Positions 3,865 to 6,579 of a stretch of 20,000 bases of DNA are shown here, in pieces. Origin of the DNA: an uncultured virus (IMG/VR IMGVR_UViG_3300042197_002672) (Duplodnaviria; Heunggongvirae; Uroviricota; Caudoviricetes); the IMG/VR virus record IMGVR_UViG_3300042197_002672. One strand, 5' to 3'. A model generated the notes under the pieces. It did no database searches. It was not told the DNA's origin and worked only from the letters and a program-made list of their open reading frames with translations. Position 1 is the first letter of the stretch, and each line of letters begins with the position of its first letter. Both the position numbers and the translations under genes were made by a program.

Positions 3865-4770
3865 TTGAAAGTATTAGTGACTGGTGGCAGTGGTTTTGTA
3901 GGGTCTAACTTAAAAAAAATTAGACCAAATTGGACATATATATCATCAACCGATTATGATCTAAAGAATCCTCAAGAAGTTAAATTCATGTATAAGGATG
4001 TAAAACCTGAAGTTGTCCTACACCTTGCAGCTAAAGTTGGTGGTATAAAAGAAAATACTGAAAATCAGGCCGATTTTTATTATATAAATACTGCAATAAA
4101 TACAAATATAGTGAAGTATGCAGTTGATAATAATGTCCAGAAGTTAGTGGCATCATTAAGTACTTGCGCTTTTCCAGATACATTGAACAGTTATCCATTT
4201 AAAGAAGATGATATCTTCAAGGGACCTCCGTCAAAAACTAATTTCTCATATGGATATTCTAAAAGAGGATTATATGCTCATTGTCTTGCAGTTAGAGAAC
4301 AATATGGATTGAACTATTCTTGCTTTTCTCCTTCTAATGTATACGGACCAGGAGATCATTTTGACGATATACAGTCATCTCATTTTGTTGCTGCTTTAAT
4401 TTCAAAGATAGCAAACGCCAAAGATGGAGACTGTCTTGAATTTTGGGGCAGTGGAACACCATTAAGGCAGCAGCTCTACGTAAAAGATTTATGCGATATA
4501 CTTACAATTTTTGTAGAACAATTCTACAGTACAGATAAAGCAGTTATTGTTGCTCCAACAGAAAATCTTTCAATAAAAGAAATGATAGATATAGCTATTC
4601 GCATATCTGGAAAAAATTTATCATATAAATTTAATGGAAAATTAGATGGTCAATACAGAAAAGATGGTAGTAACGATTTCCTTATGAGGATTGTAGACTA
4701 TAAATTTACTACATTTGAAGATGGAATTAAAGAAACTTATAACTCATACATAAAAGAGAGGAAGGTTTGA
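3865..4770 (+). CDS. fcl: GDP-L-fucose synthase-like epimerase/reductase (Fcl/ColC family)
   Basis: VLVTGGSGFVG, HLAAKVGGI, LSTCAFPD, SYGYSKR, PSNVYGPGDHF, SHFVAALI, WGSGTPLRQ and DGQYRK. The track starts at GTG 3853; TTG 3865, 6 nt after GAGG, gives MKVLVTGG and is the likelier start. Confidence 0.85.
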   Translation: MKVLVTGGSGFVGSNLKKIRPNWTYISSTDYDLKNPQEVKFMYKDVKPEVVLHLAAKVGGIKENTENQADFYYINTAINTNIVKYAVDNNVQKLVASLSTCAFPDTLNSYPFKEDDIFKGPPSKTNFSYGYSKRGLYAHCLAVREQYGLNYSCFSPSNVYGPGDHFDDIQSSHFVAALISKIANAKDGDCLEFWGSGTPLRQQLYVKDLCDILTIFVEQFYSTDKAVIVAPTENLSIKEMIDIAIRISGKNLSYKFNGKLDGQYRKDGSNDFLMRIVDYKFTTFEDGIKETYNSYIKERKV

Positions 4771-4805
4771 AGACAGCCATAATTACAGGGGCGACAGGCC
4801 AATAA
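4767..4805 (+). pseudogene. Orphaned 5' end of gmd: 12-codon mini-ORF MKTAIITGATGQ*
   Basis: TTG AAG ACA GCC ATA ATT ACA GGG GCG ACA GGC CAA TAA. The TTG overlaps the fcl stop (TTGA) and follows GAGAGGAAGG. The peptide matches the canonical Gmd start (MKxAxITGxTGQ). Confidence 0.85.
4784..4801 (+). repeat. 18-bp direct repeat, left copy (TACAGGGGCGACAGGCCA)
   Basis: Identical to 5598-5615, 814 bp downstream; encodes TGATGQ of the Gmd Rossmann motif. Confidence 0.97.
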
Positions 4806-4818
4806 AATAATTCTATTA

Positions 4819-4849
4819 TTCCTGTGATAATAACTATTTAAAACAGGAG
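4819..4849 (+). promoter_or_regulatory. Putative RBS-sequestering stem in the endonuclease leader
   Basis: TTCCTGT (4819-4825) is complementary to ACAGGAG (4843-4849, one G-U), which contains the SD AGGAG 6 nt before ATG 4856. Short stem with a 17-nt loop; stability not computed. Confidence 0.45.
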
Positions 4850-4855
4850 ATCGTA

Positions 4856-5590
4856 ATGAAAAAAATTATTTATGCTACAAAAAACTGTCAGTTATGTCAA
4901 GAACAATTTCAAATAAAAAAAACCTGCAAAAAAGACTTTAAAAGAAAGTTTTGCTCTAAAAAATGCTCATCTGTTTTTAATGGAAAAAATAATAAAGGCA
5001 GAAAACACACTGAAGAATGGAAGCAAAATTTAAGAGAGAAAAACTCTGGAGAAAATAATCCATTTTACGGCAAACAACATTGTTCTGAAACAAAAGAAAA
5101 AATTTCAAAAAGCAATAAAAGTAAAGGCAGAAAACACACTGAAGAATGGAAGCAAAATTTAAGAGAGAAAAACTCTGGAGAAAATAATCCATTTTATGGA
5201 AAAAAGCATACAGATGAAAGTAGAGCAAAAATATCACAAAATCATGCCGACCATTCTGGAGAAAAAAATCCAAACTATGCAAATGGCGATAAAATCAAAG
5301 GTGAAAAAAATCCTGGCTGGTTAGGAGGCATATCTTATGGAGAATATGGTTTAGAATTTAATCAAGAATTAAAAAAATCAATAAGAAAAAGAGATTTTTT
5401 TAAATGTAAAATTTGTAAAAAAAATGGTTATGATGTCCATCACATAGATTATGATAAAAAAAATAACTTATCTGAAAATTTAATTACTTTGTGCAGAAGC
5501 TGTCATATGAAAACAAATTTTAATAGAGAAAGCTGGAAGAGTTTTTTTAAAACAACGAAGGAAGAAAACACATGTCAACACAACGAATAG
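4856..5590 (+). CDS. HNH homing endonuclease with N-terminal Zn-finger and NUMOD3-type DNA-binding repeats
   Basis: CQLC...FCSKKC; repeated GRKHTEEWKQNLREKNSGENNPFYGK, KHTDESRAKIS and GEKNP motifs; C-terminal CKIC...DVHHIDYDKKNN...NLITLCRSCH HNH motif; AGGAG SD. Confidence 0.92.
   Translation: MKKIIYATKNCQLCQEQFQIKKTCKKDFKRKFCSKKCSSVFNGKNNKGRKHTEEWKQNLREKNSGENNPFYGKQHCSETKEKISKSNKSKGRKHTEEWKQNLREKNSGENNPFYGKKHTDESRAKISQNHADHSGEKNPNYANGDKIKGEKNPGWLGGISYGEYGLEFNQELKKSIRKRDFFKCKICKKNGYDVHHIDYDKKNNLSENLITLCRSCHMKTNFNRESWKSFFKTTKEENTCQHNE
4993..5196 (+). repeat. Exact 75-bp intragenic direct repeat (4993-5067 and 5122-5196, period 129 bp)
   Basis: Both copies read TAAAGGCAGAAAACACACTGAAGAATGG...GAAAATAATCCATTTTA and encode KGRKHTEEWKQNLREKNSGENNPF(Y). 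Confidence 0.95.
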
Positions 5591-6579
5591 CACTTTGTAC
5601 AGGGGCGACAGGCCAGGATGGGAGTCATTTATGCGAATTACTTCTATCAAAAGGATATAAAGTAATTGGAACAAAGAGAAGAACATCTACTATAAACACA
5701 TCTAGAGTAGATCATATTTTCTCAAATCCTAATTTTATATTAGAATATTTCGATCTTAATGACGGCAGTTCGATGTATAATTTAATATATAAATACGATC
5801 CAGACGAAATATACAATCTAGCAGCTCAATCTCATGTAAGAGTGTCTTTTGACGTGCCTGAAAATACAGTAGATGGTATTGCAATGGGAACTCTAAAGAT
5901 ATTAGAAGCTATAAAGAATACAAATAAAGAAATAAAATTCTATCAAGCATCATCTTCAGAAATGTTTGGAGATGCTCCTATTCCAGATGGTGGATATAAA
6001 GAGTATAGTTTAATGACACCAGCATCTCCTTATGCATGTGCTAAATTATTTTCACATAATCTAGTAAGGAATTACAGATATTCTTATGGATTACATGCAA
6101 GCAGTGGAATTTTATTTAATCACGAGAGTCCAAGAAGAGGTGAAACCTTTGTCACAAGGAAAATAACCCTAGCTGCTGCTGCTATTAAATTAGGAATACA
6201 GGATAAACTTTATTTAGGAAATCTTGATGCTAAAAGAGATTGGGGATATGCTAAAGAGTATGTAGAGGCTATGTGGCTAATGCTTCAACAAGAATCACCA
6301 GATGATTATGTTATTGCTACTGGAGAATCTAAAACTGTTAAAGAATTCTTAGAAATAGTATTTGACTTTGCACAACTTGATCCTTATAAGTATGTTAACA
6401 TAGATGAAAGGTTATTTAGACCTCACGAAGTTCCTTTCTTACTTGGAGATGCAAGTAAAGCTAAAAATATATTAAAGTGGGAACCAAAATGCTCTCTAAA
6501 AGAATTGGCTGAAATGATGTATAAGCATGATTATTCTGCTCTATATAAGAAACTAAATGGAGAAAAAAATGCAACATGA
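5572..6579 (+). CDS. gmd: GDP-mannose 4,6-dehydratase
   Basis: TGATGQDGS, YNLAAQSHVRVSF, FYQASSSEMFG, SPYACAK, GILFNHESPRRGETFVTRKIT, LGNLDAKRDWGYA and RPHEV. The start overlaps the last 19 nt of the HNH gene; AAGGA upstream. Confidence 0.97.
   Translation: MSTQRIALCTGATGQDGSHLCELLLSKGYKVIGTKRRTSTINTSRVDHIFSNPNFILEYFDLNDGSSMYNLIYKYDPDEIYNLAAQSHVRVSFDVPENTVDGIAMGTLKILEAIKNTNKEIKFYQASSSEMFGDAPIPDGGYKEYSLMTPASPYACAKLFSHNLVRNYRYSYGLHASSGILFNHESPRRGETFVTRKITLAAAAIKLGIQDKLYLGNLDAKRDWGYAKEYVEAMWLMLQQESPDDYVIATGESKTVKEFLEIVFDFAQLDPYKYVNIDERLFRPHEVPFLLGDASKAKNILKWEPKCSLKELAEMMYKHDYSALYKKLNGEKNAT
5598..5615 (+). repeat. 18-bp direct repeat, right copy (TACAGGGGCGACAGGCCA)
   Basis: Identical to 4784-4801. 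Confidence 0.97.

Follow-up and report, generated by a model that had tools for sequence, protein, structure and literature searches.

The window studied here, a stretch of 20,000 nucleotides from an uncultured virus of the class Caudoviricetes (IMG/VR record IMGVR_UViG_3300042197_002672), carries a gene for GDP-mannose 4,6-dehydratase (gmd) that is preceded by an orphan copy of the resident gmd 5′ end and by an intact gene of the HNH homing-endonuclease type, with a substitute gmd start lying inside the last codons of the latter. Compared with an empty allele, this arrangement has 814 bp inserted behind the G-Q codons of the nucleotide-binding motif TGxTGQ|DG. The insertion is probably a homing-endonuclease cassette that is mobile and has specialised in the 5′ end of gmd in phages, in which the mobile unit would be the HNH gene together with a ribosome-binding site (RBS), an ATG and the first codons of an ALCTG-type gmd of another lineage, all fused to its 3′ end. 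An earlier, model-made reading of the same DNA (the original prediction) had described coupling to the upstream gene fcl, a TTG-initiated stub, an 18-bp repeat, the HNH gene, an AAGGA motif and a new gmd start, and every one of these elements is present at the positions it gave. All features with window coordinates below are on the plus strand.

The interrupted gmd and its direct repeat

The gene upstream of the insertion is an fcl-like short-chain dehydrogenase/reductase (SDR) gene of the GDP-fucose synthase type (3853..4770 in the list of open reading frames (ORFs), with TTG 3865 as the likely true start; Pfam Epimerase, E 3e-43). Its TGA stop overlaps a TTG at 4767 in the form TTGA, and the same gene with the same stop/start overlap is present in a metagenome contig (L063) and in a syntenic viral contig (L001). 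From this TTG runs an orphan stub of the resident gmd (4767..4805), consisting of the TTG start, 12 codons encoding MKTAIITGATGQ, and a TAA stop at 4803–4805. The stub peptide resembles the N-termini of the nearest Gmd proteins whose genes are free of a homing-endonuclease gene (HEG), namely P0121 and P0122/L001: MKTAIITGATGQ in the window compares with MKTAIVTGATGQ... in P0121 and MIKTAIVTGATGQ... in L001, and L063 has a stub of its own type, MKTAIVTGATGQ followed by a stop. For annotation, the short orphan ORF after fcl is therefore to be recorded as the footprint of an insertion event and not as a gene. TTG starts are used by both fcl and the original gmd, in the window (3865 and 4767) as in L063 (295 and 1197); L001 has ATGA at the overlap where the window has TTGA, and for several database Gmds of the window's clade the first residue on record is Leu, as would be expected from TTG starts.

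Within the stub lies the left copy of an 18-bp direct repeat (4784..4801; resident gmd codons T7–Q12; repeat family D7, 100% identity), while the right copy (5598..5615) provides codons T10–Q15 of the full-length gmd, which is the resident-lineage gene from there on. The 18-mer, TACAGGGGCGACAGGCCA, is found exactly twice and is G+C-rich in an A+T-rich phage; by our estimate (about 4e6 position pairs over 4^18) the chance expectation for an exact 18-mer repeat in 2.9 kb is around 1e-4. The start-to-start spacing of 814 bp that had been proposed was confirmed and, since the first T of the repeat is a third codon position in both copies, removal of the 814 bp preserves the reading frame. The insert can be drawn as 4802..5615 or equally as 4784–5597, and in the former version comprises a spacer, the HNH gene, the RBS, the new gmd start and the right repeat copy.

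The HNH gene and the substitute gmd start

Behind the spacer (4806..4855), which includes an RBS for the HNH gene (AGGAG, 4845–4849), the insert carries an intact homing-endonuclease gene of 244 amino acids (4856..5590) with an N-terminal Cys cluster, NUMOD3 repeats and a C-terminal zinc-type HNH domain. In Pfam the protein matches NUMOD3 in two stretches (E 3.7e-24), the modular DNA-binding region typical of an HNH homing endonuclease, and in PHROG it matches HNH and homing-endonuclease families (best E 4.9e-9). A profile of its family matches the HNH domain of an IscB structure (1.7e-5); a further match, to the DNA-binding domain of I-TevI (1i3j; 0.0096), is weak. In an alignment with 26 homologues, residues C184, C187, H195, H196, N208, C213 and H217 are invariant across the family and all kept in the window protein, which has the beta-beta-alpha-metal HNH catalytic motif with flanking CxxC pairs and a C-terminal tail of normal length. 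The family is large, with 1734 proteins at E<=0.001 among 2786 scored candidates. Because the ORF is intact, the invariant residues are kept, the family matches are present and the ratio of nonsynonymous to synonymous divergence (dN/dS) against L063 is 0.2, the ORF looks like a working gene.

Two tandem 129-bp units lie inside the HNH gene (4974..5231; repeat family D1, 84% identity), each with one NUMOD3 module. Both encode a near-identical peptide, GRKHTEEWKQNLREKNSGENNPFYGK, and L063 carries both. In homologues P0002–P0007 (64–72% identical) the second module is much more diverged, and for this reason the DNA-binding module looks as though it was recently duplicated or converted within the gene.

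The putative signals for the new gmd start are embedded in the endonuclease gene. Within the last 33 bases of its ORF (5558–5590), in a different frame, stand the RBS AAGGA (5558..5562) and, 9 nt further on, the ATG at 5572. From this ATG a substitute gmd 5′ end (5572..5597, of which 5572–5590 overlaps the HNH gene) encodes MSTQRIALC, codons 1–9 minus the last base, and runs into the right repeat copy, so that a diverged version of the displaced gene end, brought by the element, stands in frame with the gmd core. The resulting chimeric gmd (5572..6579, 335 amino acids) begins MSTQRIALCTGATGQDG and matches PF16363 (E 1e-121), covering profile positions 1–332 from residue 8 onwards. This full-length domain, the TGxTGQDGS motif and the conserved catalytic residues identify the product as a predicted Gmd, which keeps all 69 invariant columns of a 30-sequence alignment and is 91% identical to P0121 by BLASTP (90% in the multiple alignment) and 80% identical to P0122.

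The two parts of the chimera are of different types. The body groups with the KTAI(I/V)TG(A/V)TGQ clade, and the TGATGQ of the right repeat, with its Ala, is the type of P0121 and L001. ALCTG is the natural N-terminus of another Gmd lineage, for which a degenerate DNA search returned 17 loci (15 with ALCTG and 2 with AFCTG); an HNH gene lies upstream in only two of these, the contigs L227 and L228. Because ALCTG is natural in that other lineage, the window body belongs to the KTAI clade and the start is common to L227, the first nine gmd codons are, as judged from these comparisons, foreign and travel with the endonuclease. The proposal that the cassette itself donates the substitute 5′ end is borne out by the start it has in common with its sister HNH cassette in L227. 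Judged from the alignment, the substitute first beta-strand is presumably equivalent to the resident one. For annotators and phylogeneticists the case is a caution that the first codons of genes like gmd can be foreign.

Empty alleles and independent assemblies

Logan contigs of four runs from four studies were placed on window positions 3800–6700. One of them, X5 record 26 (663 nt), covers 4460–4783 and then 5598–5936, skipping exactly 814 bases; at the joint 18 letters fit either side, and there are 4 and 10 differences on the two sides. This contig is a natural empty allele, from a phage about 98% identical. Nine of its differences are listed (five more are unlisted), and read in frame eight of these are synonymous and one changes Asp to Glu in fcl; as eight of the nine listed differences between the occupied and empty alleles are synonymous, selection on gmd is suggested. 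At greater distance, P0121 (Gmd 91% identical) has an uninterrupted start, MKTAIVTGATGQDGSY, in full MKTAIVTGATGQDGSYLC, and in L001 (80% identical) the fcl stop overlaps the gmd ATG and the gene reads MIKTAIVTGATGQDG.

The cassette is in this way precisely present or absent among close relatives, with an 814-bp joint in X5 and empty loci in L001 and P0121, and the empty alleles anticipated by the original prediction exist at three distances (about 98%, 91% and 80%). The prediction had named as a point against itself that relatives lacking the HNH gene might already start with MSTQRIALC; the HEG-free relatives with Gmds 91% and 80% identical begin M(I)KTAIVTGATGQDG instead. It had also raised the possibility that the repeat is an assembly artefact, which the independent assemblies dispose of. 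The left junction is matched by X2 record 2 (4634–4822) with 0 differences and is also present in L063, and the right junction is matched by X4 record 19 (5494–5644), from a study other than that of X2, again with 0 differences; the X2 contigs leave 5449–5642 uncovered. Other searches for empty alleles gave more distant sequences. A blastn search of the named phage collection in distant mode returned only 65–75% matches, to cyanophage gmd, and found neither a close relative nor anything matching HNH, and a search of genome contigs with the P0121 Gmd returned 80 loci, all at <=63% identity and none usable as an empty allele.

Divergence of the cassette and its flank

Contig L063 shares with the window the end of fcl and the spacer, has a stub of its own and breaks off inside an HNH gene whose protein is 92% identical, so the comparison with the window covers the left flank and the first 636 nt of HNH only. 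Over this range fcl has 81.4% nucleotide identity with a synonymous divergence (dS) of 1.12 and a dN/dS of 0.08, whereas HNH has 95.1% nucleotide identity, a dS of 0.151 and a dN/dS of 0.205; the stubs are identical at 34 of 39 positions and the spacers at 46 of 50 (92%). Similarity rises abruptly at the left junction, and the window and L063 each keep a stub of their own type. As the HNH dS is far below that of fcl, the element appears younger than its left flank, which points to horizontal spread. The step at the junction together with the own-type stubs fits repeated entry at one site, and would also fit recombination confined to the break.

HNH relatives at other gmd loci

HNH relatives with their flanks were collected from viral and metagenome contigs with a hidden Markov model of the family, giving 180 hits, 113 of which reach the HNH end and 70 of which are non-redundant with both flanks. 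The four nearest distinct relatives (46–49% identical) are L223, L224 (the same as L225 and L226), L227 (the same as L228) and L229. In each the downstream gene is a Gmd (Pfam E 1e-112 to 1e-126), at a distance that ranges from overlap to +6 nt, and these are the 4 of the 70 with the gene within 60 nt. No gmd-like start was found after the other 66 HNH ORFs in a motif screen, with Pfam run on L102 and L247 among them; an HNH alignment search of genome contigs gave 8 loci, the best three not adjoining gmd. Upstream, the four gmd-linked relatives have different neighbours (no family match, a DegT fragment, a glycosyltransferase and one unscanned), the window having fcl. In a quick tree the five gmd-linked HNHs fall on one side of a branch with a support of 94 in the SH-like approximate likelihood ratio test (SH-aLRT), and the window is sister to L227 (83).

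Two of these relatives are the most informative. In L227 there is no stub, and the gmd start, MSESMRALCTG, lies inside the HNH 3′ end; L227 and the window share an ATG-TCA start and a 12-nt stretch coding A-L-C-T, with Gmd bodies only 49% identical. In L224 the original prediction's suggestion to look for homologous HNH genes with an upstream orphan gmd N-terminus met with success. Here the stop of the upstream gene overlaps an ATG whose frame reads MNKKRKAVISGIAGQ and, after 4 further codons that are unrelated, reaches a stop, and the full gmd after HNH starts MKKRKAMITGINGQDG, with a 14-bp exact repeat joining the stub and gmd copies. Homology of the L224 stub ends after the Gln codon, at the same G-Q codons and within one base of the window breakpoint. 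In this 113–119 kb viral contig the whole gmd 5′ end is duplicated, at L224 2357–2419 and 3220–3264 (also in L225, L226, L320 and L321), with about 70% identity between the copies. A search of viral contigs with the L224 Gmd for an empty allele of this locus found a nearest relative 74% identical, too distant for the purpose, and an over-long match in that search (L383) proved to be an ordinary fcl-gmd pair.

Controls set L224 apart. In a screen of the 70 HNH loci for flanking repeats only L224 (14 nt) stood above controls, none of 25 control windows having a repeat as long, and repeats of 12–13 nt in L229, L068 and L244 were matched by controls. Among 206 gmd loci, 198 of them with a recognisable start, an HNH gene or true stub lay upstream only in the L224 element (L320/L321); one further match to the stub motif, L328, looks like chance. 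Insertion in the Rossmann motif, as first proposed, holds for the window and, to judge from its stub, for L224, and it does not extend to the other three of the five backgrounds, where the stub is absent and HNH abuts gmd. On this comparison of loci, the start of gmd is the home of the HNH lineage, which looks as if it lay within the gene only in those backgrounds that have retained the resident stub.

Distant members of the HNH family lie directly upstream of, and overlap, Polysacc_synt_2 (PseB/CapD-type) genes in L102 (223–1155) and L247 (2258–3749), and these sugar-nucleotide dehydratase genes start just before their own Rossmann motif. It may be that the family has likewise moved into other extended-SDR genes.

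A model for insertion and spread

We propose that the target of the enzyme is HEG-free gmd, with a cut on or close to the Q|D codon boundary, in what would be the gene's most conserved DNA; this cut site rests on the two stub end-points at the G-Q codon, and the sequence recognised is probably the highly conserved one coding for TGxTGQDG. The break would be repaired from an occupied genome, with the stub and fcl as left homology and the gmd body as right homology. Ribosomes would translate the 12-residue stub peptide and then initiate Gmd anew at 5572, and a Gmd with a foreign but equivalent first beta-strand would work without RNA or protein splicing. By splitting the target site the insertion would also protect its carrier. 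The first event was probably a one-sided repair, illegitimate on the left and similar to what is described for T4 homing where homology is limited (PMC2988022), from an L227-like donor with HNH placed between gmd and another gene. That the enzyme cleaves, that translation begins at the new start, that Gmd is active and that the element is harmless are what we infer from the DNA and its relatives.

A wider proposition, to which we give somewhat less than even weight, is that the whole phage HNH lineage homes into gmd coding sequence and neutralises the damage with a portable 5′ end (RBS, start codon and first Rossmann beta-strand). It would then be a splicing-free 5′ mirror of the mobile ORFs (mORFs) of fungi, with the stub serving as a left homology arm that frees the cassette from its upstream gene, and the split target conferring immunity.

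Several observations weigh against reading the locus as a mobile cassette specialised on gmd. The Ala codon in TGATGQ marks both 18-bp copies as resident-type, whereas a Q|D break repaired from a foreign gmd predicts a donor-type right copy, and the origin of the exact duplication is for that reason unexplained; staggered nicks, a short conversion at a later stage or a pair of template switches separated by 18 bp would each be enough to produce it. Since L063 ends inside HNH, its high similarity may stop at the right junction or run on through gmd, and in the second case general mosaic exchange could be at work and not a transfer limited to the HEG; the empty allele could also be a secondary precise loss via the 18-bp repeats. 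The stub is absent in three of the five backgrounds (L223, L227 and L229), where HNH is a plain free-standing gene abutting gmd. The scores of the two Pfam HNH models (20.0 and 20.3 bits) fall slightly short of the gathering cut-offs, the HNH tree is a quick search with support below 95, and the junction evidence consists of assembled contigs, not raw reads.

Alternative explanations

An HNH gene that is no longer mobile, domesticated or decaying after one old insertion, with precise deletions between the 18-bp repeats in some lineages and ordinary mosaic recombination, is an unlikely alternative. Precise loss can come about through a direct repeat of 18 bp and would leave just the form that X5 has, phage genomes are mosaic with nucleases marking the boundaries of exchange (PMC10448857; here and below, statements on published work refer to those parts of the cited sources that were available), and the right flank of L063 is unseen. 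What speaks for continued mobility is the intact ORF with all family-invariant residues and a dN/dS of 0.2, a dS in the cassette some 7-fold below that of fcl with a step at the junction, and the presence of the same lineage at gmd in five backgrounds with different upstream genes. We consider it quite improbable that the locus is the scar of a single illegitimate recombination, that is, an ordinary intergenic HEG whose stub and repeat are accidental and have no role in mobility or immunity. One-sided homing in T4 with illegitimate repair at microhomologies is documented (PMC2988022, citing Parker 1999), and three of the five backgrounds are without a stub; yet two independent stubs, that of the window/L063 and that of L224, have end-points no more than 1 nt from one and the same codon boundary, and L063 retains its own diverged stub beside a 95%-identical cassette, which fits repeated entry at the same site.

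The remaining alternative is an HNH-bearing group I (or II) intron, from which 814 bases would be spliced to join the TTG stub to DGSHL (peptide MKTAIITGATGQDG), ATG 5572 being incidental. HNH genes are often found in phage group I introns (PMC2988022), and the repeat permits boundaries with U before the 5′ end (4783) and G at the end of the insert (5597). We treat these intron-like boundaries as coincidence, because the HNH lineage lives at gmd and carries a gmd start. A cmscan search with all Rfam families (4500–5900, both strands, E<=10) gave seven chance-level matches, none of them to a group I or II intron, in agreement with the splicing-free arrangement first proposed. Non-coding sequence amounts to only 54 nt before and 7 nt after the HNH ORF, and the downstream frame has its own RBS and ATG with a natural Gmd-type N-terminus, without need of an upstream exon. 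L223, L227 and L229 have no upstream exon, so gmd must start there at the cassette-side ATG, and the L224 stub continues into 4 unrelated codons. Taken together, an intron is extremely improbable. Ribosomal bypass of 814 nt we judge implausible, as a matter of opinion. A scan of 3700–6700 found 21 promoter-like sites against 15.1 +/- 3.9 expected, and no terminators, and so gave no signal of use.

Gene context

The locus belongs to a seven-gene sugar-nucleotide cluster (240–6922) of a freshwater phage, on a 77-kb contig. The genes named in it are transketolase-like, two SDR epimerases, a DegT aminotransferase, an RfbB-like dehydratase, fcl, gmd and a cupin related to mannose-6-phosphate isomerase. 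The cluster is followed by a late-sigma-like gene and baseplate genes, between which sit five large ORFs (507, 293, 823, 331 and 476 amino acids; 8989–14855 and 17010–18440) with no Pfam or PHROG match at E<=0.001.

Comparison with known systems

HEGs are usually said to survive by residing in introns or inteins or by occupying intergenic positions. The original prediction had set the cassette against this rule, which stands as the usual case; replacement gene ends are nevertheless already documented, in fungal mitochondria and for 3′ ends (PMC3630166). The gmd cassette would be a clean natural phage example of this third way of survival, replacement of the displaced gene end. Besides the occupied allele there are an empty counterpart about 98% identical, another occupied allele that is diverged, and four further phage backgrounds with homologous cassettes. 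The case would also add to the replication and nucleotide-metabolism genes among HEG targets a sugar-nucleotide gene, one of a class frequently regarded as phage auxiliary metabolic genes, and the HNH protein, which probably recognises the TGxTGQDG-coding sequence, is a candidate site-specific nuclease with a defined natural target. That gmd is an unusual homing target, as had been claimed, agrees with the literature: we found no phage HEG replacing a gene 5′ end, and no HEG at gmd, by title and abstract in the literature searched, most subscription journals lying outside its coverage.

Among phage systems, the free-standing Seg/Mob endonucleases of T4 and mobE (PMC2988022; PMC2790892) share with the cassette an HNH-family gene beside a conserved gene expected to be its target, spread by break repair with co-conversion, and presence or absence among close relatives. 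Those genes lie between intact genes, whereas the window insertion is inside a coding sequence and has part of gmd fixed in the cassette. The nrdA/mobE genes-in-pieces of Aeromonas phage Aeh1 (PMC3045599), cited as ‘at least one instance’ in PMC10448857, are likewise a free-standing HEG in a coding region, without splicing, in which sequence created by the insertion rescues function. In Aeh1, however, both fragments are needed and are assembled through insertion-derived tails, while the 12-codon gmd stub is redundant, being re-encoded by the substitute start, and is not an indispensable fragment. The bypass element of T4 gene 60 with mobA (bioRxiv 10.1101/2022.08.31.505936) is also an HEG-linked in-gene cassette with extra sequence that neutralises damage; there ribosomes hop over 50 nt, whereas here 814 nt would be dealt with by a fresh initiation site and no bypass. 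These two, nrdA/mobE and gene 60, are the phage cases known so far in which an element sits within a gene without splicing.

The closest parallel is in fungal mitochondria, where, in Allomyces, Glomus, Rhizopus and Mortierella, mORFs replace gene 3′ ends and what was displaced of the native gene persists as a remnant (PMC3630166), with examples in atp6 of Allomyces macrogynus and in atp6, atp9, cox2 and nad3 of Glomus (PMC3630166); C-terminal duplications beside HEGs are described from Endoconidiophora (PMC6279837). As in the mORFs, an endonuclease ORF sits in a protein gene without an intron and brings a diverged copy of the displaced end in frame with the core, and the native end remains beside the element as an unused duplicate, closer to relatives than the inserted copy is. 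The mORFs differ in acting on the 3′ end, in being of the LAGLIDADG or GIY-YIG type and in being mitochondrial, whereas the gmd cassette acts on the 5′ end, is of the NUMOD3/HNH type and belongs to a phage with baseplate and late-sigma genes. Unlike a mORF, it must also supply an RBS and a start codon, and it does so by an overlap inside the last codons of the endonuclease. The gmd cassette and the fungal mORFs are the same mechanism but not the same family: the principle of carrying a replacement gene end is not new, and what sets this case apart is the 5′ end with its translation signals, the redundant stub and gmd as the target.

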